A DNA stretch of 64,000 nucleotides from Candidatus Woesearchaeota archaeon (lineage in GTDB: Archaea; Nanobdellota; Nanobdellia; Woesearchaeales; JAHWHD01), in contig JAHWHG010000004.1 of NCBI GenBank assembly GCA_019323515.1, positions 1,859 to 65,858 on the forward strand. The letters are read 5' to 3'. Shown here piece by piece: positions 31,101 to 52,687 of the stretch. Numbering within the stretch: the first letter of the stretch is position 1; each line of letters starts with the position of its first letter. The notes beneath the pieces were generated by a model that was given only the letters and a program-made list of their open reading frames with translations, ran no database searches and had not been told where the DNA came from. Made by a program: the position numbers and the translations under genes.

Positions 31101-34100
31101 TAGTCAGTAAGAGTCAAACAGGTAAGAAAATTATAGATTTTGCTACTAAATATGCTGATGATGTAAGACTTGGACAGATGGCTGAGCAAATTGATGATGT
31201 GACAAATAATCTCGTTAAAGAAAGTTGGATGCTTAAGTTAAAGAATAAGGTTGTAAAGACTATTTGGAAAAATGCTGATGATGCTGCTGTCCAGACAGCT
31301 GATGACGCGCTTGCACAGATTACAAGCCTTAAGAATCAGTTTGTTAATGCAAGGGCTGCAGGTGATGTAACAAAAGCTAACCAAATAACTCAACAAATCG
31401 CAAGAATACAAGCTGATGCTTTAGCAAAGATAAATGGCCAATATCTAGGATTAGCAAAACAAGGTGCACAGATGTTAGTAAAATCTGCAAGTTTTGAAGA
31501 AATCAAGGAGGAAGCACAAGAAGAACTTGCAGGAGATATAGGTAAGAACCTCAAGGATAAATTAGGGGGTTCTGCTGGGGTTTTAGCAGAAGCACTTGTT
31601 ATTTTTTACAATATGAGAAAAGGAATTGTCAGCGGCACTATTTCAAGCGCAGATGTAAACCTTTACAACAACCAACTTAAAACAGCATCAAACGCGATGC
31701 TTAAACCTTTTGTAGATACTAATTTCCAAAATAAGGTCATTGTGTTCGATGGGAATAATTATGATTTCAAAACTAATCCAGATGGATCAATCACCTTGAT
31801 TAACAGCGATGGTGTTACTGTGAAAAAAATTGATGGACTTCTTGACTTACAAGCATTAGTAAGAGAAGGGAGAGTGCAGGTTCCAGGTGTTGTTGATTTG
31901 AATGTGTTAGTGGATAAAGCTGCATTAGATATACCTCTTAATGTTGAGAATGCAAGGACTGATGCTGAGATAGACACATTAAGGACAGAACTACTTGATC
32001 CTGGGATAACAGCAGAAAGGAAAGCAGAGGTACAAGCTAGGATTGAAAGCCTTGAGAGCCATAAAAATGAGATTGGAAAAAGCATTGATGCGCAAAAGTC
32101 TAATGTTGATATAAAACAAAAGAAACAGGAATTAGCTGATGCTGAGCAACAGGGTGACCTAAACAAGATACAGGAAACTACAACAGCCCTTAGAGAAGCT
32201 GAGACTGCAAGAGCTAACAGTCTTTCTGAACTACATACTGCACAAATTGAAGGGATTGAAGCAAGGAAGAGGGCTTATGAAAGTAAGATTGCTGAAACTA
32301 AGAAGACACTTGCGGGAGAGACTGATGCAAAGGTTCAGGCTGAGATTGAGGCAAAGTTGAATTCGTTACAGGCGCTTTTATTGGATGCTGATGTTGAGAT
32401 ATTGGCAGCAGAATCTGCAAAGTTAGAAGCAGAGATTGATAGTCTGAGAAAGCAGAGTAAGATTGCAAGTGATACCGAGAAAGCAAGACTTGAACAGGAG
32501 ATTGAGCAGAAAAGAAAGCAGTTACTTGATAAATCGATTCAGCAAAAAGAGGCAGAGATAGAGAGAGAACAGGCAGTGCAACAGACTGTGGCTGATGAAC
32601 TAAAGAAAGTAGAAGGTGACACCACTGGATTGTTTGTAGGGAGTGATATTTCGGGTTTAAGAGCGTTACAGGATGCAACTGATAGGTTAATCGAGCAAAA
32701 ACAAGAACAAAAAGAGACTTTAGAAAGGCAGAAGGAATTTAATGAGAAAGAAGGTAATGATGATGTTAAAAGACAGCAGAATGAGTTAGAAGAAAGAAAG
32801 AGTGATTTCTTTAGGGATGTTGAAGACTACCATGCACTTAAAGAGTCTGAAAAAGAGAGTGAAGCTGGTAAAGCTTTAAGGGCTAAGTTAGAGAATGAAC
32901 AAAAGGCAATAACTGTCAACCAATTACAGATTGATGCTGCAGTGCAAAAATCTTTAGGTACAACTGAGCCTGTTTCTGAAGAAGGAAGGCTTCAGAAGAA
33001 GGCATTGGAAAAGGTTGAATCGTCAATCAAAGAGGATCAGCAGCTTGACACCGACGAAAAAGAAGCAGTGAGCGAACTGACTAAGTTGCAGAATGAGAAA
33101 CAGAAGAAGGAAAGACAGGTTGAGTATGTTGAAGGAGAGATGGCAAAACCTGATGTTGGTGATGAGTATGAACTTGATGGGAAAAAGTATAAAGTAACTA
33201 ATATCTTAACAATCGGAGGAAAAACATATTATGAGGTTCAAACTGAGTCCGGCGAAATAAGAGGATTCACTGCAGAGAAGATACAGGCAGCGACTAAGAT
33301 TTCTAGTAGCCTAACTGCGAAGAGAGGGGTATTAAATACTATAAGGATACAACTTGAGAATGATATCAATAATATTGAAACACAAGAAAAAACTGTTGAA
33401 GAGAATTCTGATACTAAGGATGCACAAAAAGAGGCTGAGAAAGAGCCTGAACAAGTTACAAAAGAGAAAAGGATAACGGATTTGACTGCTCAGATTAATG
33501 AACTTGATGGTAAGATTGCTGAAGCTGAAAGGAATGGAGATTTTGTTTCACTTGAAGATCAACAAAGATTGAACAGGCTTAAGCTTGAGAGAGGCACATT
33601 AGAATTAGATTTACTATTAGGAAAAAAACTTGAACCGACAGAGGTGGAAGTTGCCAAGGAGCAGCAGGTGAAAGCCTTAACTGCTCAGATCAATGAACTT
33701 GGTGCAAAGATTGCAGAAGCTGAAAGAAGAGGTGACTTTGTCTCGGCTGAAGATCAACAGACTTTAGAGAGGCTTAAGACACAGAGGGCTGGTTTAGAGT
33801 TAGAGATATTATTAGGAGCAGACTTTGAAGCAGCAGAAGCAGTACAACCTGAACTAAAGATAGGAGAACCTGCCAAAGTCACAGAAGACGCAGGTACTCT
33901 AAAACAACAACTACAACAGCAAGGGGTACGCCAGGACCTAATAGACCAGGCTGGTGATGATATTGGCCAGTTAGAGACTTTGTTAAGAAGAGCAGGTACA
34001 CCAGAAAGCAGGGCAGAGGCAAGGCAGTTTGCAAGGAGAGTAACACCATCACAGATGGAGAGAAGCAGGTTGGCTGAACTAACAAGTGAAGCGCAAAGGG

Positions 34101-37100
34101 ACGTTGGTTCGGTATTAGATGCAATCTCTGGGGTAAGCTACCAGAGAGGAGCAGTTAATCTAGATTCAATCACATTAGGAGATATAGAGATAAAGATTGG
34201 ATATGGAAGAAGCCCATGGCTTGGACCTATCTATTCAGAACAGGTTGATGGGCAGTGGCAGATACAAATTGATACAGGAAGGTTAGCAAGTTTATTTGCA
34301 TCGTTAGACACACAACAGGAGCGTGATCTTGCATTTAAAGCATTGATTGCGCATGAGCTTGGAGAGATTGCAGGTGTGGAGAATGGTTTCTTGGTCGCTG
34401 ATGATTCTCATGTTATAGGAGCAAAGATTGCTAAGAATGTGTTGGGGGAGTTAACAACTGATTCTAAACAGTATATAAAGGTTAAACAGGCACTCAATAA
34501 TTTCGCATGGGCACAGAGTGATCCTATCAATATCGAAGGAGAAATGACTGAAGGAATACGTCAACGTGTATTGAGCGACTATCATTTCAGGAATAGTAAG
34601 TTAGCTTATGACAATCATTTAGTAAGGATTGCAGGGGGTGAAAAAGCTACAAGACCTATAGCAACAGTTTATCACAAGGTTGGAAAGACCTTTAAGGTAA
34701 TTTTTGAACATGGGAATGGAGAGGTGCAGATAGCGACGATTGATGTCATGGATTTCAAGAATCAAATCAATACTAGATATGGGCATATTGTAGGCGATAA
34801 TTTCATAACGCAGATTGGAGGTGCATTGGCAGATGCAATGGCTAATTGGGATGGAAGTGATGTTACAACCTACTTAAACAATCTGCTTAATGATAATGAT
34901 TTCAAGCAGAATATCATAAATAAAGTCCCTAATCAAAAGGTTGAAGCTCCTTTAGAGACTGATACAGAAAGCAAAGGTGATGATAGGAAGCTCAAGTTAG
35001 GTGAGTTTAATTTCTATGCTGGAGTTTCTGAAAGGTCAACAGTGGACAGCATACCGGGAGCGCAAAGGCTGAATGACCAGTCAACAGTTGCAGGTAAGAC
35101 TGCTGAGTTAAATATAGGTGGTGTTGATATTGATCTGTTGGCTGAAGTACAGAACAGGCAGCCTGAAGATGTATTAAGCGCTGATACTGTTAGCAGGCTG
35201 ACAGGAGGGTCAATACAGGGGTCAATGACATTGGATGCACTGCTTGCACAGCTTAAGACAAAGCAAGGTACAAAGGTCCTGGAGTTTGCTGACACAAATG
35301 ACTGTTGTAAGACAAAGGCAGTTCCGCAGATATTTGCAAATGAGTATGAATTCTTTGGAGAGAAGATAACAACAGCTGATATGACTGAATTGTTTAGGCA
35401 AAGACGAAGAGCAATTACAGAAGCGAATCTTGAACAGGCAAGGCAGCTAACAGAGGCTATATGGGAATCTGCATCACTTAACCAGGAGTTTGGAGGATAT
35501 CTTGATGGTAATGATCTTTTCAAGCTTGCAACTAACAAACTGCTTGATGACAGAGGCGACAGAGACTTTGCACAAGTGTTCATAATAGGAGGGGATGAAG
35601 TAGGTATTGTCAAGAGCGGTAATGGAAGAGTTACATTCGGAAGGATAGATATCAATAACTTTGGAAAGACCAATCAAAGGTATGGTGTTGAGTATGCTGA
35701 TGCATTAAAGGTTCAGATTCTAAAGATAATACAAAGGAACATTGAAGGAGAGATTAATGCTGATACTGCTAAGAAGATTAATACTGAGATACTAACTTAT
35801 GTTCAAAGCACAGGCAGGGAGTTCTCACAAGAACTTATGCCTTCTGTAAGTATAGGTATTATTAATGTTGATTCAAGGTTTAATGAGATTGATGCTACTA
35901 AACTGAATGAGTTAGCAGATGCTGCTAGCGAGAGGATAAAAGCAGAATCAAAGGCAAGGATAACTGATACAAGGACGACTGCTGATGTTGTGAATGAAGG
36001 CGGATTCTTTACAGAAGCTGAACCTGATTATGAAGTTATTGATAAACCAAGACCAACACCAATTACTGATTCGCTTGCTGACTGGATGTTTAACTTTGAC
36101 CAACAACAAAGGTTAAAGACGCCTGAACAGAAGAAGGCTGATGCTTTAAACGATCTGTTCTCAGATGATGTATGGCAGCAGTCTCCTTTGCAAGGGTTCC
36201 TGCACCAGACTGATAATCAAGGGAGGACAGTCCAGCAGAGGTTAGAGAGCAAACTTCAGAGCGGAGAGACTGCTGAGGATGTTGTCGCAGACATTAAAGC
36301 AGGAATCTTTCACAGATTCCCTAATGATTATATACCTGGTAATATTGAGGTTCTATTACAAGGATTCATCAATGATGTGAATGATATAGATGTTGAGACT
36401 ACTATTGATGATTTAGTTGATAAAGGTTTTACAGATGTTACAGAAGTTGGAAAAGGTGCTGTAGGGAATGTGTTTAAAGCAGAGAGAGCTGGAGAGACTG
36501 TTGCAGTCAAGACACTGCAGAGAGAGAAAGCTACTCCTGAAGCAGTTGCATTGTTTGAGAAAGAACCGCAAGTCTTAGCGCAATTGGATCATCCGAATGT
36601 TGTAAAGGCAAAAGAATCAGGTGTTAAAGACGCAAGGCCGTACTTTACTCAGGAATATGTTGAGGGAGAAGGTCTTGACCAGAAAGTAGCAGAGGCTAAG
36701 TATCAACAAAGGCCTTTATCAGTGCAAGAGGTTTCTGATGTTGCAGTGCAGTTGTTTGATGCATTGCAATATCTGCATGACAGGGGTATAATCCATAGGG
36801 ATATCAAGCCAGGGAATATAATCGTTGAACCAGATGGTACTATAAAACTAATTGATTTTGGATTTGCAGGGTTTGACCAGGAGTTAAGAGAGAGGTTTGG
36901 ACTTGAAGGTATACCTCAGGTTGGCAGTGCTCCTTATGACGCGCCTGAGATATTTAATGAAAAAAGAATGGCTGACAGGTTTGGGATAACTAAGTTTGAT
37001 GAGACTAAGGTTGACATCTATGCAGCTGCGTGGATGGTTTATGAGATGTTAACATTGAACAGTCCAATTTCTAGTGGACTTAAAGCAGATGTTGATTATA

Positions 37101-38248
37101 AAATTGATACTGACTTACTAAGAGCTAATGGTGTTCCAGAAAATCTTATACAGGTTTTAGAGCGTGCTTTAGCACAGAATCCTAATGAAAGGCCTGATGC
37201 TGCAAGCCTTAAAGCTGCATTTGAAACAACAACCACCCCAACTGGGTTAGAAGCGATAGTGGAAAAATCTGGTGAGCCAGTAAGTATCGGCAAGGTAATT
37301 GGAGGAAGGTATGATGTACAAACATCGATTGGTGTAGGCGGCTTTGGACAGACGTTCACTGCTGTTGACCAGGAGACAGGAAGGACTGTTGTGATAAAAG
37401 CGTTTGAGCCTAAAACAATGGAGCCAGCTGCAGTTGAACAGATGAAAGAATTGTTCAGAGAAGAAGCAAAAGTTCTTCAAAGACTGTCGCATGATGGAAT
37501 TGTTAAAGTGTTTGACGCTGCTCTTGAGGGAGATAATCCGTATATTGTTGAAGAGCATGTAAACGGTAAAACTTTGGAGTCTATGATCGGTGAAAGTACT
37601 GATCCAATGAGTCTTGAGACTGTGAATGATATTGCAGTTAAGGTTCTGGGGATTGTTGAGTATATGCATCAACAAGGTGTTATCCATAGAGATCTTAATC
37701 CTAATAATATAATAATAACTCCTGATGGAGATGTTAAGATAATCGATTTTGGTTTGGCAGGATTTGATAAAGAGTTTAGGACAAGGCATGGTTCCACTGG
37801 GTTCACTGGTGACTTTAAGTATGGAAGTCCAGAGCAGCTTGACTTAGATGGGTTCATGAAGACAGCTGAGTCTGATCCTGAATATGATGAGAAAGCGATG
37901 GATGCGTATACAATTGGAACTGTCCTCTATAATATGATGACCAAGAATAATCCTTTAGGATTGCCAAGTACTGCCACTTCAATAGGTTTCTTGGGTAAGA
38001 AAGGGGTAGGATATGATGCAGTTAATCCTACTGAATTCAATAAAGACATACCAAATGTGATTGCTGATGTTCTGCAGAGGGCTGTTACAAAGGATTACAA
38101 GCAGCGACCTACTGTTGCAGAGATAAAGAAAGCTTTTGATAATGTTGATGAGGACATTAACGTATTTGGAACAGAGGTTGGAGGAACTCCTAGTATTGCC
38201 ACAATTAATATAATGGAAGAAGCAAGAGCTGCAAGTTCATGCGGTTAA
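25154..38248 (+). CDS. giant (4364 aa) secreted multidomain protein: signal peptide, beta-rich region, TPR/coiled coil, GGDEF-like palm motifs, tandem Ser/Thr protein kinase domains
   Basis: A single uninterrupted ORF. The N-terminal signal is FAIFVVLSLVLSSVSVKA. TPR-like and long heptad regions are present, with a 65-aa tandem repeat at 33482-33817. IDVMDFKNQINTRYGHIVGDNF (about 34735-34800), GGDEV (35588-35602) and RIDINNFGKTNQRYG (35641-35685) are GGDEF-like. Kinase 1 has GKGAVGNV...VAVK...HRDIKPGN...DFG (36440-37220). Kinase 2 has GVGGFGQT...VVIK...HRDLNPNN...DFG (37290-38150). Confidence 0.85.
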   Translation: MNRFEDIWKRGFAIFVVLSLVLSSVSVKAVEPGEEGFDWEKADYEKIDYTKITDINSIPQQYYSKIPWSKFPKEVIVKFSGDARIRELVKVLEVQSKESLKLLTSAQVKNILGEFKDLSILNHAEVAKALVAKGEFPGGAVLNLVPGVVYKDGKLINPKFPNGLGIKSLGSDVTSVSAVVTEIGTEGFIICKGTKCNEVTSAIAGEFTGVSRDKDGNLVIDTTNGPVKLDGNIRAVVDVSGDVVYLTDDGTFIQHKGFSFTARGTTQKTNFKFKGNKLTMEGPGEVSSDGNRVSGKVEGSFTVEIGLTADEFKVTGNKADITVYGKDRYTGDFSNEYKEGKLMMFSLDSYMSSAKIRGHLAITNDDNIKKVYITQNNPNAKTLEQVWHNAAVITTFNEEKLNIDKLKDADVKKYVSDSIEKNKAKIEALKAAKEKAKTDYEKSQIQSKIDYLEVYVKDLEGITTKAALMGVVDNTISRLEADNARIWKTHPNTGYLEVVNSDVNLYGDKKSTDSIPGRLVILPGKSSYGVSELDSRSMSGEQANVYSIYSPPEYSDASGKDLKKRGIMYCASGSTGITGDMCSARAKTSVGLVEIMSGRDSSGNGYSRVSRNSAVKNNVDDAGLIVVGPTSKDARTSMIKLDADGIHAIDSLVGEGKSRVYTNPTIIDKIAENYKKVRDIALGVLRAAGLLREDEKVSEEARKKAQELKQRLAATFVEEFKDIREFVAGELSELEKRMPGVTQKLIDLNTYKVEQNEQGLLSMLAAEKDEQMKDRIRASILDVYKAQGETGKEEAWLKTWEQQAPNSKWLATIKSQRAQQQTLRVDYSKMTNAELEALAETKPTVALYQELTNRYLKDKDYANAQKYADLARTEVTLGLERAEFNLEKAGYSDLFDMTDRMTTVYQTLADVSLANKDNLLAEDASRFNLAINKRNYRAAQTLSAALIAQDKLKDNVAAWESYSNENKDASRLYDRAGVNLIDAYTRIKAYDKVEEKYLDIEVTKNTDIKKEADVAYVRSLNVQSSELLKDKKYDDALAKAKRALQVDKNDKFSLSVMSSVASSYYSSKRYDDSIALLEDLKNRKGSLTESEKVTLAGAYHGKGNIAKAKGLYGEVKDAFEKKGVAKLSNTDKFSYAQALDGLGESDKSYEVWKQLSQITPANDNEKNLKSIAQNVVSQIDTTRGFQAALKGITEKQETVQAYDKVVDGLSSKDALRLANSIAGKADKFTKEADAKAFLKKVGQSNFQVAEARAISREGLDLVKQGLQQVKEGKDVSQALATYNGGLDTLLKATISPDKRKESGGKLDNLREKIQILKRQIADAKESRDKAPSGWFGTKTKEYETYNSLYEARLKDLDAAQKEYLKLRQQILSGANLADKRELIKLQEDLLSELRGQKAQGYLGSAETVRQLEETTDQFIAEVAGQYGFLLERYDQQSSGLWTLIVSEKEKLRDRSYNTYLKQGYTAEQAKDMAEKQAQDYVNVRMKNIGLENADLFQKDLLDAKTKRQQLSLETDNQRREAAAAHAAGGWKIGQYVIVSNRNIDIVKNWWASDGVLTDYTKKAEVGFLGNFGYKVANGVSKTVGLFLEVGLPVAIGSLVANVKDGVLLASGSATTNEQTIQEKNKAVAKNQQIIQGLQYLSKITQETSSADMEALARAVKSKSTTGLTDSQKKLYEKYFTGTEGTKAKESVLLAVTDNRLNNQDFGPGGVLEYASGVNDLTPEEIAKRQALLANAQKTEYFKDARNKLLAGWGLDEKGDYFADSKGNYLSLEAGGRLLGRLINPKETLTQVTHLAWANENLAGVLNFFGTSSNEYEKLKYLNRKGSELAKTTQMVKLLEEGKFKDLSAIYNNEGDVLSPEQHKEYRQLIDLDVNLRTARLVEKYGSYDKIPQSEIQAINRLKVADEVGRYNWEAAKGYAQLTQDPNLVSQVQDTQTYQQTLNRMGETAGFFANMAIFGAATRGLSSLGGKILSSEPAKTLGRIVSKSQTGKKIIDFATKYADDVRLGQMAEQIDDVTNNLVKESWMLKLKNKVVKTIWKNADDAAVQTADDALAQITSLKNQFVNARAAGDVTKANQITQQIARIQADALAKINGQYLGLAKQGAQMLVKSASFEEIKEEAQEELAGDIGKNLKDKLGGSAGVLAEALVIFYNMRKGIVSGTISSADVNLYNNQLKTASNAMLKPFVDTNFQNKVIVFDGNNYDFKTNPDGSITLINSDGVTVKKIDGLLDLQALVREGRVQVPGVVDLNVLVDKAALDIPLNVENARTDAEIDTLRTELLDPGITAERKAEVQARIESLESHKNEIGKSIDAQKSNVDIKQKKQELADAEQQGDLNKIQETTTALREAETARANSLSELHTAQIEGIEARKRAYESKIAETKKTLAGETDAKVQAEIEAKLNSLQALLLDADVEILAAESAKLEAEIDSLRKQSKIASDTEKARLEQEIEQKRKQLLDKSIQQKEAEIEREQAVQQTVADELKKVEGDTTGLFVGSDISGLRALQDATDRLIEQKQEQKETLERQKEFNEKEGNDDVKRQQNELEERKSDFFRDVEDYHALKESEKESEAGKALRAKLENEQKAITVNQLQIDAAVQKSLGTTEPVSEEGRLQKKALEKVESSIKEDQQLDTDEKEAVSELTKLQNEKQKKERQVEYVEGEMAKPDVGDEYELDGKKYKVTNILTIGGKTYYEVQTESGEIRGFTAEKIQAATKISSSLTAKRGVLNTIRIQLENDINNIETQEKTVEENSDTKDAQKEAEKEPEQVTKEKRITDLTAQINELDGKIAEAERNGDFVSLEDQQRLNRLKLERGTLELDLLLGKKLEPTEVEVAKEQQVKALTAQINELGAKIAEAERRGDFVSAEDQQTLERLKTQRAGLELEILLGADFEAAEAVQPELKIGEPAKVTEDAGTLKQQLQQQGVRQDLIDQAGDDIGQLETLLRRAGTPESRAEARQFARRVTPSQMERSRLAELTSEAQRDVGSVLDAISGVSYQRGAVNLDSITLGDIEIKIGYGRSPWLGPIYSEQVDGQWQIQIDTGRLASLFASLDTQQERDLAFKALIAHELGEIAGVENGFLVADDSHVIGAKIAKNVLGELTTDSKQYIKVKQALNNFAWAQSDPINIEGEMTEGIRQRVLSDYHFRNSKLAYDNHLVRIAGGEKATRPIATVYHKVGKTFKVIFEHGNGEVQIATIDVMDFKNQINTRYGHIVGDNFITQIGGALADAMANWDGSDVTTYLNNLLNDNDFKQNIINKVPNQKVEAPLETDTESKGDDRKLKLGEFNFYAGVSERSTVDSIPGAQRLNDQSTVAGKTAELNIGGVDIDLLAEVQNRQPEDVLSADTVSRLTGGSIQGSMTLDALLAQLKTKQGTKVLEFADTNDCCKTKAVPQIFANEYEFFGEKITTADMTELFRQRRRAITEANLEQARQLTEAIWESASLNQEFGGYLDGNDLFKLATNKLLDDRGDRDFAQVFIIGGDEVGIVKSGNGRVTFGRIDINNFGKTNQRYGVEYADALKVQILKIIQRNIEGEINADTAKKINTEILTYVQSTGREFSQELMPSVSIGIINVDSRFNEIDATKLNELADAASERIKAESKARITDTRTTADVVNEGGFFTEAEPDYEVIDKPRPTPITDSLADWMFNFDQQQRLKTPEQKKADALNDLFSDDVWQQSPLQGFLHQTDNQGRTVQQRLESKLQSGETAEDVVADIKAGIFHRFPNDYIPGNIEVLLQGFINDVNDIDVETTIDDLVDKGFTDVTEVGKGAVGNVFKAERAGETVAVKTLQREKATPEAVALFEKEPQVLAQLDHPNVVKAKESGVKDARPYFTQEYVEGEGLDQKVAEAKYQQRPLSVQEVSDVAVQLFDALQYLHDRGIIHRDIKPGNIIVEPDGTIKLIDFGFAGFDQELRERFGLEGIPQVGSAPYDAPEIFNEKRMADRFGITKFDETKVDIYAAAWMVYEMLTLNSPISSGLKADVDYKIDTDLLRANGVPENLIQVLERALAQNPNERPDAASLKAAFETTTTPTGLEAIVEKSGEPVSIGKVIGGRYDVQTSIGVGGFGQTFTAVDQETGRTVVIKAFEPKTMEPAAVEQMKELFREEAKVLQRLSHDGIVKVFDAALEGDNPYIVEEHVNGKTLESMIGESTDPMSLETVNDIAVKVLGIVEYMHQQGVIHRDLNPNNIIITPDGDVKIIDFGLAGFDKEFRTRHGSTGFTGDFKYGSPEQLDLDGFMKTAESDPEYDEKAMDAYTIGTVLYNMMTKNNPLGLPSTATSIGFLGKKGVGYDAVNPTEFNKDIPNVIADVLQRAVTKDYKQRPTVAEIKKAFDNVDEDINVFGTEVGGTPSIATINIMEEARAASSCG

Positions 38249-39087: not shown

Positions 39088-39534
39088 ATGCAAGATTTGA
39101 GTAAGAAAGAGGCAGAAGCATTATTCCAGGAGTTTGTGGAATTTTTGAAAAAGAAGAAGATTTCTGTAAAGGGGTTAGGTGAGTATGCTATTCCCATCTC
39201 TATATTTTCCAAGAAGTTAAGCGCTACAGAAGCTGTTGTCAAGTACTTGCGTGAAGAGCATGAGCTAGGTTACAATAAGATTGCAAAGCTGCTGCATAAG
39301 AATCCTGGGCCTGTTGGTGTAACTTACAGGAATGCTAAAAAAAAGTTTAGAGGAAAGTTAAGTGTTGATTCTGATCATTTTATTCCAATAAATAAGTTTG
39401 ACGGAAAGAATACTGTATTTGAGGTTGTTGTTAAGTTTATGAAAGAGGAGTTAAAGTTTAGTTTCAAAAAAATTGCTAAGTTGATGGGAAGGAATTACAG
39501 GACTGTATGGACTGTGTATAGGAGGGCTGCATGA
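39088..39534 (+). CDS. small DNA-binding protein with two tandem HTH-like repeats
   Basis: Internal duplication: ...LSATEAVVKYLREEHELGYNKIAKLLHKNPGPVGVTYRNAKKKF versus ...TVFEVVVKFMKEELKFSFKKIAKLMGRNYRTVWTVYRRA, a sigma-r4/LuxR-like HTH pattern. The stop overlaps the ATG of the 2387-aa ORF (ATGA). Confidence 0.6.
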   Translation: MQDLSKKEAEALFQEFVEFLKKKKISVKGLGEYAIPISIFSKKLSATEAVVKYLREEHELGYNKIAKLLHKNPGPVGVTYRNAKKKFRGKLSVDSDHFIPINKFDGKNTVFEVVVKFMKEELKFSFKKIAKLMGRNYRTVWTVYRRAA

Positions 39535-42500
39535 AAAAGGTAATCAGTGTGCTATTGATATTTGTATTGTTGCTGAGCAGTGTTAGCGCTGATTGTCTTA
39601 CTCCTTTAGGTAAAGAGAGATTGGTTGAACAGAAGACTCCTGAATTGGTTGAGCAGGGGTTGAGTAAAGAGCAGGCTGATACTTTGTTGAGGAGTGTGGT
39701 TGAAGGACAAAAAGAATTACCTGCTACTGAATTAACTTACCAGCAGAAGATTGATGAGGTTCAAGGATTGATAGATAGAGAAGAGTTTGATGCTGCTGTT
39801 GCAAGATTGAATGAATATGGGATTAGTATTCCAAGATTTGATACTTCTACAGGAGAGGCTTTGGATACTCCTGAGAAGCAAGCAAGAGGGGCATTAAGGT
39901 TAGAAGCTGAGAAGAGGAGGCCTATTGTTGAAAAACAGGTTGATGAAGCAATTGAGAAATTAGCAAGTTCCTCAACTAGTACGCGGATTGAAGGTTCTAA
40001 TGCATTAAAAAGCATTGGAAAAGAAGCTGTACCTAAACTTATTGAAGCTTTAGATAATGATAATCCAGACATAAGGTGGCAAGCTGCAAGATCCTTAGGT
40101 GACATCGGAGATGAAAGAGCAATTCCAAAGTTGATTGAAAAGTTAAGTGACAAAGACACTACTCTGCAAAGTAATGTAATTGTTGCACTTGGAAGACTGA
40201 AAGCTTATGATGCTGTGTATGCACTTAACAAAATCGCTTTTGATAAATATAAAGCGAGTTATCTTAGAAGGAATGCGATAACTGCATTAGGTGAAATAGT
40301 AGGTCCAAGAGCTGACGAAGTAAACAAGAAGTTAGGAGATACAATAGGTGTTTTAACAAAAGCTCTGACTGATAAGGATCCTCAAATACGTGAAGCTGCA
40401 GCAAAGGCTTCTGGGCTAATAGGGAATGCTGATCCATTACAAATCTCAAGATTAATTGGCTTACAACAGGATAAGAATGAATATGTAAGAGATTCTGCAT
40501 CTGAAGCACTTTCTCGGATTAGAGAGAAGATGATAAGCAATATGAATTCAGATGATGCAAAAGTTAGAAGAGCATCGATTGATATTATTGAAGTATTTAA
40601 TGACCCTACGCTTGTGCCTGTTTTAATTGATGCTTTGAATGATGCAGACTCAAATGTAGTTACTTATGCAATGAAAGCTCTAGCCAAGTACAAGGATAAT
40701 AGAGCGGTTTTACCGTTGATAGATAAATTAGATAAGGGGAATGATTTTGAACGTTCTGTAGCTGCTAGAACTCTAGGCCAAATAGGTGGTGCACAAGCTG
40801 TTCCAGCTCTTTCAAATGCATTAAGAGATGCTGATGCGTTTGTAAGAAGAGAGGCAGCTAATGCATTAGGGTTAATAAGAGATAAAAGTGCAAGTAGTAG
40901 TTTGATTGAAGCATTAACTGACACTGATGTAGATGTAAGAGCTAATGTTGTTGAAGCTTTAGGTAGAGTTTTTTATGATTCTCAAGATCAAACTGTATCG
41001 GAAGCATTAGTGCAATCTTTAAGTGATTCAGATGCACGAATAAGGAGAATGTCTGCTGAAGCATTAGGAAGGATTGGTGATACTGAAATAGTCCCTGGCC
41101 TTATTGAAGCAAGAAATGATAATGAGGCGTCTGTTCAAGATGCTGCATTGAAAGCTCTTGCATTATTAGGCAATCAAGATGCAATCAATGAATTTATTCA
41201 GGACTTGAAATCCGACTCCAGTGAAAAACGGATTAATGCTATAAACATCTTAGAGGAAACTGGTAAGGGGATTAATGAGATATTAAATTCTGAAGCTTTA
41301 TTTGAAGATGAAAATACTCAGAGGTATGCAGTCATAGCTGTTATGAGAAATGGTAATGCTAATGATTTGATCAGATTAATGAATATAATTAAAAGCACGA
41401 CTAACCCAAAAACAAAAGCAAATTTAATTGAAGCTATGACAGGCAGTACCATTAGTCAAGCAGATAGGATATTAGGATTAGATAATTTTGAGCAGCTTCC
41501 ACCTTTATTTAAAGAATTTCTGAAAAAAGGCGAGATTCAGGGAGAGGAGATGGGATTAGTTATTGGAAACCTTCCATCAGTAGCTACTGAAGGGATTGAA
41601 AGGTCTAGTCTAGAGTCTAGGATTGAGCAGGAATTAAGCGGTTTAAGTTTCACATCAAGGACTGCAGGTGATAGGAGTTTTGAAGATGATACGTTCACTG
41701 GACAGAAGCATAAATTAAGTTCAAGTGATTTAATCAAGATATTACAAATTGTGCACAGTCTGAAGAATCCTAATTTCAGGAATAGCATCGGAAAGAACAT
41801 TGTCTATGATTTGGAGCATTATGGTAGCGAACTTGGAGGTCTAGCTTTTATCAATGAAGATGGAGAGCTTGAGCTTGAGGATTTTGCTCCAAAATGCAGG
41901 GGAGATAATTGTGCTTATGTGTCTTCAGAGACCAGGAGGCTGAAGGCAAATGAAGCTTTCTTTGACTGGCACCAGCATGCGACTGGAGATGCAAATCCTG
42001 AAAGATATGTTGGGCCAAGTGGGAGTACTGAGGGGGGTGCGGATTTAGGGGTTGCGCGGAGAGATAGACATGACGGTGTGGTAATTGCATATTTAGGGGG
42101 TAATAAGTTTAATCTTCATTTCTACACCCCAGAAGGGTATGTTGTAAATTTGGGCAATTATGAATGGGATAGTGATAATGTAGGTGTTATTGATATAGAT
42201 GCCATACGCGCATATTATGAAGTGGCGCAGAGGGGTTATGATAAGAATCCTGCAGCTGCATCTGAGATTACATCAAGGTCAGAGCTTAGTAGAAAACAAC
42301 AGGCGGATTATCTTAAAGCAGTCGTAGATAGAAATGTGGATGAAGAAGGACTACGGAAAGAGATGGAAAATGACGGGATACCTAATGCTGCTGATGTAGC
42401 CAGAGCTGTGTTTACAGCAGAGGCACCTTCTAAAGCAGAAGAAGCTGCGCTTGCACAAGAATCGCCGCTTCGAGATTTAGTAGGAGATAATCTTCCAATA

Positions 42501-45500
42501 ACTACGCCTGCTTTTGAAAAAATGCCTTCAACTCCTTTGGGGTTTGAACCTTTAGATGTTAGTGATGTCGAACAACCAACAGCTGAGTTTAGAGATAAGA
42601 TATGGGGTGGAGATACATTAGCTATCCCTATAACTTCACCAACTGAATATAGGAAAAATTTAGCTGCGCCTTTAGTTACAGATTCTGAGAATCTTGCTGA
42701 GGGTGGACTGCAGTATAAACCAGGAGATAAAATTACACTTGTAAGATACATAAGAGTTGATAAAGCAACAGCTGAAGCTATCAAAGGTTCTAAGAGAGTC
42801 CTATCACAGGAGGTTGCAAAACAGCAAGGTGATATAAGTAAAGCTGAGGAAGAGTTTAATGCATTAACTGGTAAGGATCTAACATTAGAATCATTGCTGC
42901 AACATACATGGGATATTGGGAGAAGAGGTAATCTTGGAATATCAACAACATATGATCCAGGGATATTATTAGCAGATTCTACAACTGATGACTGCTGCAT
43001 AGTGAAGTATACAATAGAAGTTCCAGCTGAGAGGGTTGTCAAAGTTGGCGGGACTGTTGAGAATCCAGTATTCCCTGCAGGGTTTGACCTTAGAAGAGGT
43101 GATGTGAAGAACTTTGGTTTTGTTAATCCTTCTAACTATGAATCAGAGATTACTTTCTTGTATGAAGTTCCAAATGAGTATGTAAGTAGGATTGATGTTA
43201 TTGAGGATAGTCCTCAGAGTTTAGTTAATATGATTGAGAGTGATGCTTTTGTCACAGAGCATAAACTGCAGCAGATAAAAAAATCTTCATTGTTCAGCTC
43301 TCAACAAAAATCTGAACTAGAGAGTATCCAGGATCCTGTTGAGAGGTTAATGAGAGCAAGGGAGATGTTATTGGGAAGGGCTGAAGTACCTGCAGACCTT
43401 GAAGAAAGAGTTAACCAGAGATTAGAAAGATATGGCCAGCCAGTCACTGAAACAGTGAGGCAGAATGAACTGCAGCAGGAACAGATGATTGACGAGATTG
43501 CCAAAGAGATAGAAAGTTTATGTGAAGGGATATGCGGGAAGCCGATAATAATCGAAGGCGGAGCAGGTCTGTCAACAGATTATCTGCCAGGAGTAAGTGA
43601 TAGGGATATTTCAATATTTGTTGACGGCTTGACATTGGAACAGAAAGCAAATCTTGATAACATAATAAACAGGCTTAGATTAAAGTATCCTGGTGAACAG
43701 GTTAGTTTCTTCATATATAATACTGATTTACTTAAAGGAGGAACTGAGCAAACAATTGCAAGTTCTGAAGAGCCTTATCCTTTAGCAAGAAACTGGATAT
43801 GGGCAAACACGTTCAGGACAGCTAGAGTTTTGTACGGGCAAGCTGAGTTTGACAGGATTGCTGCTGCACCTTTATCAGAGTTAAGCCAGAAGGTTCCTCT
43901 GAATGCTGAGGACGGAGAGAGTTATAGAATTGGGATGACTGAGAGTTTTATTGAGAAGTTAAAGGCTTACAGAGAGCAAGGACTGCAAGTGGATCTGCAT
44001 AAGACAGCTAAGGCAGGGTTAAGGGCTGTTCTTGGGAGAGTTATGAGAGATAATTTTGATGTTGTTAAAGGTGCTTTAGGTGCTCCTGATGCTTCTACTA
44101 AGTCTGAGACTAATTTTATCCTTGATGTTGCAAGGAATTCTGGACTTTTCAATGAACAGGAGATGGATTTAATTAGAAAGATGGCTGACCTGAGATTAAA
44201 TCCACAGAGAGGGATTACAAATGCTGAGGTAGATGTTTTAGAGGATTTTGTGTTTAAGCAGGCTTTAGTCACAGAAAGACCAACTATTGAAGTAACACAA
44301 GACATAAAAGATTTCTGGGCTAATGCAGATGAAAATCAATTCAGAGCTAACTGGCAAGACCTTCCAGCTGATGCAATGGAGGAAGCAATCAAGAATCCTG
44401 AGAGGAGGGTTGATATTTTATTGGAGTATTATCCTGCAAGCCAGATTATGATGGGAGGGACTGTTGCGCCTTCACAATCTTTAGCTGATCAACAGTTCTC
44501 GGAACAGGTAGAGCACATAATCGAAGCTGCAACTAGGAGTAGCCGGATTAATGATATCCATGTGCATCTAAGTCAAGCATTGCCTGTGGAGATGTTAAAG
44601 GATATTATGGATGTGGTTCTGCAAGGAGATGAGTGGAGTCAAAATGAAAAAGACGAAGCAGTTAAGAAATTTGCTGCATATTTAGGTAGGCAGTGGAAGT
44701 CTGCATATGAAGAGATATGGTTTGGTAGCATTCAGCAGCAATCTGAGGAGATTCAGAGGAGATTGGAGAATATTCTACAATCTCTTTCTAAACTAGAACA
44801 GGGTTATGATCAAAGTGTGTGGAATAATTTTTGGACTGAAATTCAGCTTCTATTACCCTTGTTAGATTTATCATCTATGGAAAATTATCAACAAAGGAAC
44901 GACGAAATGGTAAATCGGTTATATATTGCAGCAAATGACCAATTCAAAGCAGGAACAAAAAATATAGCAGGGGATATTATCCCAAGGATAGCATCAAGAG
45001 CCAAGGGTTATTTTGAAATTAGGCATGCTATTCAAGGAACAGACCCGAAAGATTTAGATAATATGCTAAAAAGATTCTCTGATGCTGATATTTCAGAAGA
45101 TGAAGCGGGCTTTATCCTGTCATTCACAAGGCGTAGTATTGGCAGCTTAAAGGGAAAGAGCATACCATTGGTTTCAATAATGGCAAGACTTGAGTCGCTT
45201 GATCAGATTAGCGCTTTACTAGAGCAAGTTACATCGAAGAATGATTTAATGGGAATTTACAGAGTACTTTCATATGCGCAGAGGGATAGTGATACAGAAA
45301 AAGCGATTGAGCAGATGACGGATGACTCCCAGGAGATTGAAAGGCTTAAAGGGATGATAAGAAACAAACAAATAAATCGGATAGAGAACAATCAAGCTAG
45401 TAAGAAAAAGATTAATGATTTTTTGGAACGTTTCAATAAATATTTTGTAGGAATTGATATCACTGGTCATGAGGAATTTCCTTTTGCAGGCTATGATGGT

Positions 45501-46694
45501 GTTTATGATATTAGCCAAGATTTAGATGTGTTAGAAGCTTTAGAAAACAATGATAAAATTGGAACAACTGTACATGCAGGTGAAAACTTCAGAAGAAGAA
45601 GTATTGAAAGTGCAATAAGGCAAGTATATCAAGTAGCTGAACATGCAGATAGAATTGGACATGGATTGGCAGCAGTTGTTGATTTGGAAAGTATTGTAGA
45701 ATCCGATCAAGAAATCGAAGATAAGCTTATTGATCCAAAGGAGATAGTAGAAACCAGCACATCTGGAATAACAAGTTTCTCTGTTGAAAATATATTTGAA
45801 AGCGGTCATAGGTTTGAGAGTTTGGACCAAAGATTGAAACAGCTTGAATTTGAAAAATCGCACATTAATGAAATGAATCATTATTATTCAAATGAAGGTG
45901 TTCAACAATTAAATACTGAAGATATAGATAATGAGATTGTTGTACTGAACAAGATTATTGAAGCTTCAAAAAGAATCACATCTGATGATATTACTGATGA
46001 ATCAAGACGGATGAAAGATGAAGTGAAGCAAGCTCTTTCAGGAAGGGAAGAACTAATGCCACTGATTGATAAAATTATGGGAGAGCCTCCTACTTTTAAA
46101 ATACAGAGAATAAGTAAAGATGGTATTATCACAAGGTCGTTGTTGCTGAAGCGTCCATATATTACCGAAGATAACGAACTAGATATCGATGCAAAGAAAA
46201 GGATAGATGCTCTGCAAAAGATGACAATAGATAAGATGATTGAGAACGAGGTTGTACTTGAACTAAACCCTTCTTCAAATGATGAGATACATAAAGTGGG
46301 TTGGTTGCATTATGGGAGATTATTTACATACACATATTCAGGTACCAAGCCAGAATTTCAGGGAAAAAAATTAAGAGTTACAATTAATACTGATACTGAG
46401 GCAACTTTAGAAAGTACAATTGAAGATGAACATCGCGAAGTATTGAGAAATCTCTTAAGATCATATGATTCTAGAATAGATAAGTTAAGAGCAGAATTGG
46501 CGCAAACAAAAGATGGTAGTGAAAGACAACTCGCTATTAGACATGAAATTGTAATGTTGGAAAATCAACAGGACATAATTGCATCGGCTCTTAGAGATGA
46601 ACCAGAAGCCATCATAGATTTCATAATGCCATCCTCTTCAGCAATAGCATTAAGTCCTGCAAAAAGGGGTATGATAGAATCAGCTACATCTTAA
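39531..46694 (+). CDS. giant (2387 aa) secreted multidomain protein: signal peptide, HEAT (PBS-lyase type) repeats, JAB-like HxH motif, minimal nucleotidyltransferase motif, adenosine/AMP-deaminase-family domain
   Basis: Signal VISVLLIFVLLLSSVSADC. More than 10 HEAT_PBS repeats (DPDIRWQAARSLGDIGDERAIPKLIEKLSD...) span about 39990-41280. WHQHATGD...GPSGSTEGGAD lies at about 41965-42040. GGAGLSTDYLPGVSDRDISIFV (43552-43620) fits a pol-beta NTase. The ADA motifs are DIHVHL (44553-44570), TVHAGE (45567-45584), DRIGHG (45648-45665), LELNPSSN (46258-46281) and INTDTE (46382-46399). Confidence 0.85.
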   Translation: MKKVISVLLIFVLLLSSVSADCLTPLGKERLVEQKTPELVEQGLSKEQADTLLRSVVEGQKELPATELTYQQKIDEVQGLIDREEFDAAVARLNEYGISIPRFDTSTGEALDTPEKQARGALRLEAEKRRPIVEKQVDEAIEKLASSSTSTRIEGSNALKSIGKEAVPKLIEALDNDNPDIRWQAARSLGDIGDERAIPKLIEKLSDKDTTLQSNVIVALGRLKAYDAVYALNKIAFDKYKASYLRRNAITALGEIVGPRADEVNKKLGDTIGVLTKALTDKDPQIREAAAKASGLIGNADPLQISRLIGLQQDKNEYVRDSASEALSRIREKMISNMNSDDAKVRRASIDIIEVFNDPTLVPVLIDALNDADSNVVTYAMKALAKYKDNRAVLPLIDKLDKGNDFERSVAARTLGQIGGAQAVPALSNALRDADAFVRREAANALGLIRDKSASSSLIEALTDTDVDVRANVVEALGRVFYDSQDQTVSEALVQSLSDSDARIRRMSAEALGRIGDTEIVPGLIEARNDNEASVQDAALKALALLGNQDAINEFIQDLKSDSSEKRINAINILEETGKGINEILNSEALFEDENTQRYAVIAVMRNGNANDLIRLMNIIKSTTNPKTKANLIEAMTGSTISQADRILGLDNFEQLPPLFKEFLKKGEIQGEEMGLVIGNLPSVATEGIERSSLESRIEQELSGLSFTSRTAGDRSFEDDTFTGQKHKLSSSDLIKILQIVHSLKNPNFRNSIGKNIVYDLEHYGSELGGLAFINEDGELELEDFAPKCRGDNCAYVSSETRRLKANEAFFDWHQHATGDANPERYVGPSGSTEGGADLGVARRDRHDGVVIAYLGGNKFNLHFYTPEGYVVNLGNYEWDSDNVGVIDIDAIRAYYEVAQRGYDKNPAAASEITSRSELSRKQQADYLKAVVDRNVDEEGLRKEMENDGIPNAADVARAVFTAEAPSKAEEAALAQESPLRDLVGDNLPITTPAFEKMPSTPLGFEPLDVSDVEQPTAEFRDKIWGGDTLAIPITSPTEYRKNLAAPLVTDSENLAEGGLQYKPGDKITLVRYIRVDKATAEAIKGSKRVLSQEVAKQQGDISKAEEEFNALTGKDLTLESLLQHTWDIGRRGNLGISTTYDPGILLADSTTDDCCIVKYTIEVPAERVVKVGGTVENPVFPAGFDLRRGDVKNFGFVNPSNYESEITFLYEVPNEYVSRIDVIEDSPQSLVNMIESDAFVTEHKLQQIKKSSLFSSQQKSELESIQDPVERLMRAREMLLGRAEVPADLEERVNQRLERYGQPVTETVRQNELQQEQMIDEIAKEIESLCEGICGKPIIIEGGAGLSTDYLPGVSDRDISIFVDGLTLEQKANLDNIINRLRLKYPGEQVSFFIYNTDLLKGGTEQTIASSEEPYPLARNWIWANTFRTARVLYGQAEFDRIAAAPLSELSQKVPLNAEDGESYRIGMTESFIEKLKAYREQGLQVDLHKTAKAGLRAVLGRVMRDNFDVVKGALGAPDASTKSETNFILDVARNSGLFNEQEMDLIRKMADLRLNPQRGITNAEVDVLEDFVFKQALVTERPTIEVTQDIKDFWANADENQFRANWQDLPADAMEEAIKNPERRVDILLEYYPASQIMMGGTVAPSQSLADQQFSEQVEHIIEAATRSSRINDIHVHLSQALPVEMLKDIMDVVLQGDEWSQNEKDEAVKKFAAYLGRQWKSAYEEIWFGSIQQQSEEIQRRLENILQSLSKLEQGYDQSVWNNFWTEIQLLLPLLDLSSMENYQQRNDEMVNRLYIAANDQFKAGTKNIAGDIIPRIASRAKGYFEIRHAIQGTDPKDLDNMLKRFSDADISEDEAGFILSFTRRSIGSLKGKSIPLVSIMARLESLDQISALLEQVTSKNDLMGIYRVLSYAQRDSDTEKAIEQMTDDSQEIERLKGMIRNKQINRIENNQASKKKINDFLERFNKYFVGIDITGHEEFPFAGYDGVYDISQDLDVLEALENNDKIGTTVHAGENFRRRSIESAIRQVYQVAEHADRIGHGLAAVVDLESIVESDQEIEDKLIDPKEIVETSTSGITSFSVENIFESGHRFESLDQRLKQLEFEKSHINEMNHYYSNEGVQQLNTEDIDNEIVVLNKIIEASKRITSDDITDESRRMKDEVKQALSGREELMPLIDKIMGEPPTFKIQRISKDGIITRSLLLKRPYITEDNELDIDAKKRIDALQKMTIDKMIENEVVLELNPSSNDEIHKVGWLHYGRLFTYTYSGTKPEFQGKKLRVTINTDTEATLESTIEDEHREVLRNLLRSYDSRIDKLRAELAQTKDGSERQLAIRHEIVMLENQQDIIASALRDEPEAIIDFIMPSSSAIALSPAKRGMIESATS

Positions 46695-47139
46695 TAACAT
46701 ACTTCTTAATCCTTGGGTCATCCTTTGATACATATCTTGGTTCTGCTTGTAATGCCCAACTTGTAAAAACTGAGTTATGTACACCCCTATGCGTAATCCA
46801 ATACTTTGCGAATGTTTCAGGGCTATGGTCACAATAAGAATTAATTATATTATTCTCGTGGCTATTTGTATACTCTTTTATTAATGCCTCCAAATCAGGT
46901 TCTATTAATTGTTCTGATTCAAATAGAACATGTTCACAGGCAACATTAACAACCCTATCGCCTGATTCTGATTTATCATATCTACAGAAGCCTCCATTAA
47001 TCTTTAGTTTATGATATTGGCCTGCAAATTTTCCCTCATGATAGATAATCAATATATTTTTCTGTTTAGAACTATATTGTTTAACATATTCCCAACCTTC
47101 TTGTTTTCTTGGCACTAGCTTTGCCCAGATATCTTCCAT
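46684..47139 (-). CDS. hypothetical protein
   Basis: 151-aa ORF convergent with the giant gene, with an 11-nt overlap. No motif recognised. Confidence 0.5.
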   Translation of the reverse strand: MEDIWAKLVPRKQEGWEYVKQYSSKQKNILIIYHEGKFAGQYHKLKINGGFCRYDKSESGDRVVNVACEHVLFESEQLIEPDLEALIKEYTNSHENNIINSYCDHSPETFAKYWITHRGVHNSVFTSWALQAEPRYVSKDDPRIKKYVIKM

Positions 47140-51931: not shown

Positions 51932-52027
51932 GCCTCTGTAGCATAGTAGCTATTGCGATGGCCTTGTATGCGTTATAATAACGTAGAAGTAAGCCATAGG
52001 TCGGGGGTGCAAATCCCCCCAGAGGCT
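51932..52027 (+). tRNA. tRNA-Thr(UGU) with 23-nt canonical (37/38) intron
   Basis: Acceptor GCCTCTG/CAGAGGC; anticodon stem ATGGC/GCCAT; loop CTTGTA|intron 51969-51991|A; T-arm GGGGG-TGCAAAT-CCCCC; discriminator T. The D-loop lacks GG and the T-loop reads TGC rather than TTC, which is unusual. Confidence 0.75.
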
Positions 52028-52063
52028 TATTACATATTTGTAACTGAAATAGGGTGTTATAAG

Positions 52064-52687
52064 ATGAAGATAATATTTCTAGGGAAACCTGGTTCTGGGA
52101 AAGGAACACAAGCAAAAAAGTTAGCTAACCATCTGAAGATTCCGCATATTTCTACAGGTCAGATGTTCAGGTTTGCATATCAGGACAAGACCACATTAGG
52201 GATAAAGGCACATGACGAGTATTGGGGCAAGGGTAAACTTGTGCCTGATGATATAACAAATAAACTTATTGAAGAAAGGTTAATTAAGTGCAAGAATGGA
52301 TTTATACTTGATGGATATCCCAGGACAGTTAACCAGGCAGAGTTCTTGAAAAAACTAGGACATGAGATTGATTTAGTGATTGACCTTGATGTTCCTGATG
52401 AAGTTGTTATAGATAGGATTTCAGGTAGAAGGACATGTCCAAGATGTGGCACGAATTATAATATATTGACATCTCCAAAGCCGAAACAAGAGGGGATGTG
52501 CGATAAATGTAATGTTGAACTTTACCAGAGAGATGATCAGAAGCCTGAGGTTGTAAAAATAAGGTTAAAAGAGTATAAAGATTTGACAAAGCCACTTAAA
52601 GAGTTCTATAAAGATAAGATTAAATTGGTTGATGGAAACAAAGACATTGATTCAATATTCAAGGATATTCTTAAGCTTGTGAAATGA
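52064..52687 (+). CDS. adk: adenylate kinase (long, Zn-lid type)
   Basis: The start is moved to the ATG at 52064; the tracked start overlaps the tRNA. P-loop FLGKPGSGKGTQ, LDGYPRT, and lid CPRCGTNYN...CDKCN. Confidence 0.9.
   Translation: MKIIFLGKPGSGKGTQAKKLANHLKIPHISTGQMFRFAYQDKTTLGIKAHDEYWGKGKLVPDDITNKLIEERLIKCKNGFILDGYPRTVNQAEFLKKLGHEIDLVIDLDVPDEVVIDRISGRRTCPRCGTNYNILTSPKPKQEGMCDKCNVELYQRDDQKPEVVKIRLKEYKDLTKPLKEFYKDKIKLVDGNKDIDSIFKDILKLVK

Follow-up and report, generated by a model that had tools for sequence, protein, structure and literature searches.

A giant signal-bearing protein of a woesearchaeal archaeon combines HEAT repeats, a JAB-like domain, a nucleotidyltransferase and an adenosine deaminase-type domain

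We analyzed a giant open reading frame (ORF) in a 64,000-nt stretch of DNA, the window, from a Candidatus Woesearchaeota archaeon (assembly GCA_019323515.1, contig JAHWHG010000004.1, positions 1,859 to 65,858). It encodes one chain of 2387 amino acids (aa) with a signal-like N-terminus and five structured modules, four of which have complete sets of catalytic-type residues. The modules are a HEAT array, a JAB-like domain (D1), an uncharacterized domain (domain X), a pol-beta-type nucleotidyltransferase (NTase) and a domain of the adenosine deaminase (ADA) superfamily. D1 and domain X have no Pfam family, and the NTase matches none. On balance, and with some reservation, we favor an exported mosaic, multiheaded effector or toxin that would act on, or inside, the cell of a host or competitor. 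NCBI names the identical protein [quoted passage not shown] The gene contains the following features.

39531..46694, + strand: giant ORF including the stop codon, with an ATG start, 2387 codons, 7164 nt and no internal stop
39531..39596, + strand: signal peptide or signal anchor, aa 1-22, made of MKK, a hydrophobic core and VSADC (sequence MKKVISVLLIFVLLLSSVSADC)
39966..41450, + strand: HEAT or PBS-lyase-type repeats, aa ~146-640, ~15 repeats, from Pfam and the repeat count
41589..42239, + strand: JAB/JAMM-like domain D1, aa 687-903, a predicted metal hydrolase with candidate ligands E767, H814, H816 and D838, with S830
42240..42587, + strand: acidic Pro/Ala-rich linker, aa 904-1019, by composition, with no homologues found in this stretch
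42588..43280, + strand: domain X, aa 1020-1250, conserved uncharacterized module and candidate toxin module, from 9 relatives and alignment invariants
43398..44330, + strand: pol-beta-type NTase, aa ~1290-1600, with a catalytic lobe (G1343-G1344, D1357, D1359, D1399) followed by a helical lobe (AKAGLRAVLGR...)
44523..46535, + strand: ADA-superfamily TIM barrel, aa ~1665-2335, ~670 aa, from PF00962 and the ADA motifs
44691..45242, + strand: deaminase insertion 1, aa ~1721-1904, boundaries approximate, in the gap between the HxH strand and the Pfam start at profile position 97
45717..46241, + strand: deaminase insertion 2, aa ~2063-2237, helical and charged; its removal joins both PF00962 halves and both halves of the alignment to the solved ADA 6ii7

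The giant ORF is a real, intact and reproducibly assembled gene. The gene and its flanks were retrieved with 0 nt mismatches over 16.7 to 25 kb from Logan assemblies DRR851375, SRR11241199 and DRR851344, which come from three separate sequencing runs. An earlier note on this DNA, made from the sequence alone, had named an assembly chimera as a possible refutation, and this check came out negative. The three Logan loci (L001-L003) are identical to the window though the runs came via two different archives. They come from one clonal population, or from one culture or enrichment, that was sequenced repeatedly.

The N-terminus is signal-like. The earlier note had seen a signal peptide ending in SVSADC, and the hydrophobic aa 1-22 do terminate in VSADC. 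This is the sole hydrophobic segment in the 2387 aa (Kyte-Doolittle >1.6 over 19 aa). The hydrophobicity scan found no C-terminal transmembrane anchor, and the remainder of the protein is predicted to lie outside the membrane.

Membership of the repeats in the HEAT family is beyond doubt. Pfam matched aa ~146-600 with HEAT_2 (PF13646; E 1.5e-65, 217.9 bits, cut-off 27.7) in 7 stretches, and also with HEAT (PF02985; E 8e-32, 106.7 bits) and HEAT_PBS (PF03130; E 6e-28, 94.5 bits). NCBIfam gave partial CpcE/NblB-like matches. A strict regular expression found 8 repeats, and ~15 tandem copies can be counted by eye. More than 10 PBS-lyase-type repeats had been read at 39990-41280 in the earlier note, and that position was correct.

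Profile and motif evidence confirms that the C-terminal domain belongs to the ADA superfamily. It had been described as a deaminase-family domain of about 630 aa and is now placed at ~670 aa. PF00962 scored 32.9 bits against the whole protein and 36.8 bits against the C-terminal segment (cut-off 27). The match covers profile positions 97-225 and is partial because the domain contains two large insertions of ~180 aa each. With aa 2063-2237 removed, it extends over positions 97-299/330 with 43.6 bits (E 2.7e-11). NCBIfam adenosine deaminase models also match this part of the protein. A phmmer search with the spliced core retrieved 6ii7 at E 0.014, with FVGIDITGHE/VHAGE/RIGHG/LELNPSSN aligned to FVGYDHAGHE/VHAGE/RIGHG/LEVCPISN. 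The unspliced aa 640-2387 had no match in the PDB by the same method.

The deaminase motifs are H1677-V-H1679 (INDIHVHL), GIDITGHE (1974-1981), VH2015AGE2018, RIGH2043G, LELNPSSN (2243-2250) and INTD2287. The HxH and INTD motifs lie outside the 6ii7 alignment and were read directly from the sequence. In mouse ADA, the Zn ligands and catalytic residues are H15, H17, H214, E217, H238 and D295. Every one of these is present in the correct order, as H1677, H1679, H2015, E2018, H2043 and D2287. The sole deviation is T2288, which replaces the second Asp of NTDD (ADA D296).

Domain D1 is a conserved metal-hydrolase-like domain and probably a remote sister of Tox-JAB-2. Its relatives were retrieved by searching 1.84 billion representative proteins exhaustively with phmmer (query aa 690-1889), followed by iteration. 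They form the largest family found (~124 representative proteins), and in most of them D1 is the extreme C-terminal domain. The motifs here are SELGGLAF (41826-41849), WHQHATGD (41967-41990) and GPSGSTEGGADLG (42012-42050). In an alignment of 30 relatives, E767, G769, G770, H814, H816 and D838 are invariant, so the motifs are not chance occurrences. P829 is found in at least 90% of the relatives. S830 is found in most, with G at this position in several. This signature is the JAMM ligand set E..HxH..S..D, with a longer spacing than the canonical HxHx7Sx2D. The AlphaFold model of D1 has a predicted local distance difference test score (pLDDT) of 91.7. Its order of elements (helix, strand with E, strand, then a strand with HxH, a loop with S, a helix with D and three strands) appears to agree with the JAMM topology. 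In BFVD, the model matched an uncharacterized phage protein (E 1.1e-3, prob 0.99). It also matched, weakly, a Clandestinovirus "deubiquitination hydrolase" (prob 0.89) and RadC (E 1.0).

The Tox-JAB-2 domains are polymorphic-toxin domains with the pattern "E, H[ST]H, S, D" that partly overlap Pfam DUF4329 (Zhang et al. 2012, PMC3482391). D1 shares the E/HxH/S/D pattern and weak DUF4329 matches, but its H-x-H has a variable x and is not H[ST]H. DUF4329 was matched by 4 of the 30 members (best E 5e-4) and Prok-JAB by one (E 0.15). The D1 segment of the giant protein itself had no Pfam match (E <= 10), and the family profile gave noise only against PDB sequences. The earlier description of a JAB-like segment with longer spacing stands in part. 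Its E..HxH..D residues are conserved as described; its own sequence matches no JAB profile, and its model matches no solved JAB structure significantly.

HEAT repeats and D1 form a recurrent two-part unit, a family by itself, because HEAT_2 lies upstream of D1 in the closest relatives (P0002, P0007, P0009, P0011 and P0014) and in 19 of the 98 smaller ones. Signal- or lipoprotein-like N-termini were found in half of the D1 relatives (55/110). P0007 (925 aa) and P0020 (977 aa) are different HEAT + D1 proteins. For both, the longest contig on record measures 200,680 bp, and they are probably on the same contig. If so, the unit is multicopy in one genome.

Domain X was missed in the earlier note. 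The modules listed there were recovered, and this fifth one (aa 1020-1250) makes that list incomplete. It has nine relatives (P0008, P0010, P0013, P0018, P0029, P0051, P0084, P0096 and P0117), of which seven have signal-like N-termini. The named carriers are Woesearchaeota and Aenigmarchaeota. A profile scan recovered just two already-known DPANN loci, and tblastn against plasmids and phages gave no match. R1072, W1127, T1139, E1163, P1165, E1204, E1206 and F1209 are invariant, and Y1141 and E1167 are nearly so. In the model (pLDDT 83-95), R1072 and T1139 (IS-T-T-Y) are in strands, and E1204-S-E1206 is at the start of a strand.

This pattern may resemble the R / S-T / ExE logic of the R-S-E ADP-ribosyltransferases (ARTs). 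It is a motif-level lead. Domain X appears to have the same order and spacing of an Arg strand, an [ST]-T-x-[YF] strand and an E-x-E strand start as the cholera-toxin/C3-like toxins, and a similar toxin-type architectural context. The resemblance is confined to motifs, with no profile or Foldseek match. P0096 consists of a signal peptide, a pretoxin-HINT domain (PT-HINT; PF07591, 43.8 bits, cut-off 27.7) and a C-terminal domain X. A C-terminal position behind PT-HINT is canonical for a releasable toxin module (PMC3482391). In following PT-HINT in this relative, domain X is like the toxins released in that way. In most relatives a conserved "WG[GD]..EL" motif closely precedes domain X, often after R-L/A (P0096, P0008, P0018, P0051; here aa 1020-1035, 42588-42635). 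It could be part of the domain X fold or a processing site.

The NTase assignment is accepted, with support from motif and model; the two-lobed ANT/GlnE adenylyltransferases are its closest architecture. The hG[GS]x9-13[DE]h[DE]h motif reported in the earlier note is present, is conserved in relatives and belongs to a region whose model matches solved NTases. It is found at 43545-43625 (IIIEGGAGLSTDYLPGVSDRDISIFVD), with G1343-G1344, 12 residues and D1357-R-D1359. Relatives of aa ~1290-1560 were P0003 (Nanoarchaeia, 1063 aa), the fragment P0025 and, after iteration, P0008 (aa 2464-2708). In the four-sequence alignment, I..G(G)[SA]..Y..G.SDRD..F is invariant and D1399 aligns with D/E on the next strand. 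The first 15 PDB matches of the model in Foldseek are all pol-beta-fold nucleotidyltransferases or homologues. The best is the GlnE adenylyltransferase 1v4a (E 3.2e-3, prob 0.90). Others are AadA (4cs6; prob 0.97-0.98), AAD(9) (6xz0; prob 0.96), ANT-3,9, CdnC, CdnE, DncV and NF90/NF45. Lower rows, mixed with unrelated proteins, contain MNT 2rff (prob 0.96), OAS1, CCA-adding enzyme and DrrA. Like AadA, AAD(9) and GlnE/DrrA, the predicted NTase has two lobes (a catalytic sheet and a helical lobe) and a G[GS]..DxD..acid signature. It differs from them in being embedded in a giant protein, at 11-17% sequence identity and with a model of modest confidence. There was no Pfam match, such as NTP_transf_2, in aa 1300-1660 (E <= 10). 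The profile of the four relatives retrieved only OAS1 (E 1.4) from PDB sequences.

Each module except the deaminase, which is an orphan, recurs in other giant, mostly signal-bearing proteins. In the exhaustive phmmer search, only the protein itself spans more than one module, with the single exception of P0008. This woesearchaeal protein of 3697 aa contains the NTase ~500 residues before domain X, in reverse order. P0003 (HLC84330.1) fuses the NTase to a protein-kinase-like domain (HRDLHVGN..., with weak Pkinase/ABC1/WaaY matches). The modules recur with differing partners and in differing orders (NTase with kinase, NTase then X, HEAT with D1). This pattern points to independent modules that are shuffled as cassettes among exported proteins of conflict or interaction, and not to a conserved multistep pathway. 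The carriers are Woesearchaeota, Nanoarchaeia, Aenigmarchaeota, Peregrinibacteria (candidate phyla radiation, CPR), Omnitrophota and Sedimentisphaerales, for the most part lineages whose cells are small and either host-dependent or predatory. The D1 relatives include Woesearchaeota giants 5.7-5.9 kaa long and one Omnitrophota protein.

The full set of HEAT, JAB-like, X, NTase and ADA modules is repeated in no relative found. A word-index homologue search returned the protein itself or nothing. Scans for close relatives at the DNA level (GTDB genomes, JGI metagenomes and IMG/VR) returned no relative of the non-HEAT part or of the deaminase. Pfam found nothing in the three middle segments (E <= 10), and PHROGs found nothing meaningful. 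No second case of this combination turned up in any of these databases. The earlier statement that no described protein combines HEAT, JAB-like, NTase and deaminase parts thus holds within the searches made.

The gene has the following neighbors in the window.

39088..39534, + strand: 148-aa ORF with two tandem helix-turn-helix (HTH) repeats, weak Pfam Sigma70_r4_2 and HTH_23 matches, and the end sequence AGGAGGGCTGCATGAAAAAG
46684-47139, - strand: orphan 151-aa ORF, convergent, which overlaps the 3' end of the giant ORF by 11 nt
25154-38248, + strand: 4364-aa ORF with a signal-like N-terminus
24213-25157, + strand: 314-aa ORF with weak Ig-like matches (Big_9/Filamin) and a strong transmembrane segment at its N-terminus
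51932-52027, + strand: 96-nt tRNA, which matches the full Rfam model at 55.8 bits but is not called by bacterial-mode ARAGORN

The 148-aa ORF and the giant ORF are probably cotranscribed and translationally coupled, because the stop of the former overlaps the start codon of the latter (ATGA). GGAGG is present 5-9 nt upstream of the giant-ORF ATG. The 148-aa HTH ORF may be a coexpressed regulator. The 151-aa ORF has no Pfam match and no hydrophobic segment, and its orientation differs from that expected of an immunity gene. In the 4364-aa ORF, a GGDEF fragment (aa 3188-3231) precedes two C-terminal Ser/Thr protein-kinase domains (Pkinase E 1e-88; aa 3763-4021 and aa 4053-4326), and the greater part of the chain is without a Pfam match. 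The fusion of NTase and kinase-like domain in P0003 echoes this kinase-bearing giant. Paralogous modules elsewhere in the window were sought and rejected: none of the modules of the giant ORF recurs there, the 4364-aa neighbor included. The 314-aa ORF ends 4 nt inside the 4364-aa ORF, which suggests an operon of surface proteins. The tRNA presumably contains an intron, because it is detected by Rfam and missed by ARAGORN in bacterial mode. An intron-containing tRNA supports an archaeal genome. The adenylate-kinase ORF, as listed mechanically (51953-52687), starts next to or within the tRNA. Across the window, GC skew is strongly positive (0.2-0.4) at + genes and negative at - genes. Coding strands are rich in G over C, and the giant ORFs have a GC content of 0.40 versus 0.35 for the remainder of the window.

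As an exported multiheaded effector or toxin, the protein would leave the archaeal cell by its Sec-type N-terminal signal. The HEAT array would bind a partner or present the protein as a scaffold, and the enzymatic heads would act independently on the partner cell. The JAB-like domain may hydrolyze a substrate there, and the NTase may nucleotidylate a target. The deaminase may deaminate adenosine or adenine nucleotides to the inosine forms, as poisoning or salvage. Domain X may carry out a modification that is possibly NAD-dependent. The site of action would be a cytoplasm, because the NTase needs nucleoside triphosphate (NTP) and domain X possibly NAD; this would require delivery across the symbiont-host contact. 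The neighboring signal-bearing 4364-aa giant with two protein-kinase domains also favors this reading.

Several results weigh against the effector reading, which is built on sequence and structure prediction. Enzymes that use ATP and NAD are sensible only if the protein reaches a cytoplasm, which is assumed. Beside the gene, neither an apparatus for secretion or injection nor delivery repeats of the RHS type were seen. There is no codirectional downstream immunity-like gene; the next ORF is convergent. No homologues of the deaminase part were found in the word-index search, in the DNA scans of GTDB, JGI and IMG/VR, or by the exhaustive phmmer search with aa 690-1889, a query that takes in the deaminase up to aa 1889. 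The conservation of the deaminase cannot be judged without homologues. The D1 model has no significant structural match in the PDB (best E 0.42, TM 0.12). The hhalign comparison of the D1 family with E. coli YicR (RadC-like JAB) aligned the Glu strands with each other but was not significant (probability 0.2%). No ART match for domain X was found in Pfam (10 members, E <= 5) or in the PDB-sequence profile search, and none was found among the best 50 Foldseek matches listed for its confident model. The AlphaFold model of aa 1020-1640 reaches a pLDDT of only 55-68 in the NTase part, and no Foldseek E value for the NTase reaches 1e-3. This low confidence arises because the input alignment contained only two NTase relatives; MAFFT drew the NTase fragment of P0008 onto domain X.

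The effector reading can be compared with known systems. Like the bacterial polymorphic and polyvalent toxins (PMC3482391), the protein appears to be exported and modular, with shuffled enzymatic heads. Unlike them, it has several catalytic modules in series and not one C-terminal toxin, and it is archaeal. The giant ORF and its surroundings do not qualify as a classical polymorphic toxin locus: they have a signal peptide and modules of toxin type but lack PT-HINT, RHS or filamentous-haemagglutinin repeats and a codirectional immunity gene. Mosaic giant exported proteins of episymbionts are already known as a general kind. The SPEARE proteins of Nanohaloarchaeota are giant DPANN surface proteins with toxin-like parts (PMC6642349). 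Those proteins and the Omnitrophota giants (bioRxiv 10.1101/2023.11.21.568195) are, like this one, very long and mostly extracytoplasmic mosaics of small episymbiotic or predatory cells, with enzyme- or toxin-like parts. The protein here differs in that domains for serine protease, restriction endonuclease and laminin-G adhesion are absent, as is a C-terminal transmembrane anchor. With its HEAT, JAB-like, X, NTase and ADA set, it has no domain in common with SPEARE.

Unlikely, though with some evidence in its favor, is a role in surface scavenging or attachment. The HEAT array would anchor the symbiont to its host, the deaminase would make inosine forms from adenosine or adenine nucleotides of the host, for salvage by an organism unable to synthesize purines, and the other domains would process envelope or nucleotide substrates at the interface. 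The signal-like N-terminus and the DPANN affiliation of the organism are consistent with this. Adenylate kinase and HAD/PHP hydrolases are encoded a few kb downstream. The bacterial D1 relatives are lipoprotein-like (N-termini ending in LVGC or MSGC), which suggests an extracytoplasmic housekeeping role for HEAT + D1. However, the NTase requires NTP, which is lacking outside cells, and domain X behind pretoxin-HINT is in a toxin-release context. The deaminase is also very remote from housekeeping Add, both in the failure of its unspliced sequence to match the PDB by phmmer and in the replaced second Asp of NTDD.

The NTase and deaminase adjoin in one chain, and the earlier note had proposed that they cooperate, either by synthesis and then editing or destruction of the same nucleotide or by nucleotidylation and deamination of one target. 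Base-modified nucleotides and the conversion of ATP to ITP are found in bacterial immunity, in RADAR (PMC9994260) and Cad1 (PMC11645235; see also bioRxiv 10.1101/2024.12.20.629578). The relatives do not bear the proposal out, and we consider it improbable. None of the three NTase relatives has the NTase beside a deaminase; it is found with a kinase in P0003 and with domain X in P0008. No other protein with this deaminase was found, within the reach of the phmmer query given above. The two modules are also separated by ~65 residues of nonconserved helical linker.

An intracellular antiviral defense of the RADAR/Cad1 type, in which the HEAT array would sense infection and the deaminase would deplete ATP or dATP in an abortive response, is highly improbable. 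RdrB is an enlarged deaminase, as is the deaminase here. PADLOC gave weak matches to HEAT-containing candidate defense proteins and to CARF_ADA (27 bits), the latter to the deaminase core only (aa 1945-2047). Against this stand the N-terminal signal peptide and the HEAT + D1 relatives, which are often secreted or lipoprotein-like. The RdrB profile of PADLOC gave no match at E <= 1, and no RdrA-type ATPase, CARF domain or CRISPR genes were found in the neighborhood of the giant ORF. Membership in RADAR or Cad1 was rejected on the lack of an RdrB profile match, a CARF domain and a partner ATPase. Its sequence features place the deaminase within the ADA superfamily but outside RdrB and Cad1. It shares PF00962 and HxH, GxDxxGxE, HAGE, GHG, ExxPxSN and NTD in canonical order with Add/ADA, RdrB (PMC9994260) and Cad1 (PMC11645235). 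It differs from Add, RdrB and Cad1 in its two ~180-aa insertions, in Thr for the second Asp of NTDD and in its place at the end of a putatively exported giant.

An assembly chimera or a set of fused pseudogenes, which might be suspected from the unique architecture and from a word-index search that returned the protein itself only, is scarcely credible and was rejected because the DNA is identical in three independent assemblies (the 7164-nt ORF and its flanks); the ORF also has no internal stop codon, and each module retains the invariant residues of its family.

Little is known of the ways in which DPANN archaea manipulate their hosts or feed on them, and most of their giant proteins lack annotation. 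The protein described here provides four separately testable catalytic heads with named active-site residues. It also defines two uncharacterized families, the HEAT-linked JAB-like domain (>120 relatives, in episymbiotic lineages) and the PT-HINT-associated domain X. Known toxin deaminases use the CDA fold, and the deaminase here has the TIM-barrel ADA fold. To our knowledge, that fold has so far been found only in metabolism and in intracellular antiviral defense, and we know of no description of a deaminase with this fold that terminates an exported giant. A stronger form of the effector reading is tentative. In it, the protein would be the first archaeal secreted multieffector with an offensive ADA-fold deaminase that drains or poisons the adenylate pool of the host. 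Domain X would be a new toxin family, possibly a very divergent ART, and D1 would be a new extracytoplasmic JAB-like branch that travels with HEAT in DPANN, CPR and Omnitrophota. If the deaminase or NTase does hit host nucleotides or proteins, the nucleotide-pool attack of RADAR and Cad1 would extend to archaeal intercellular conflict.

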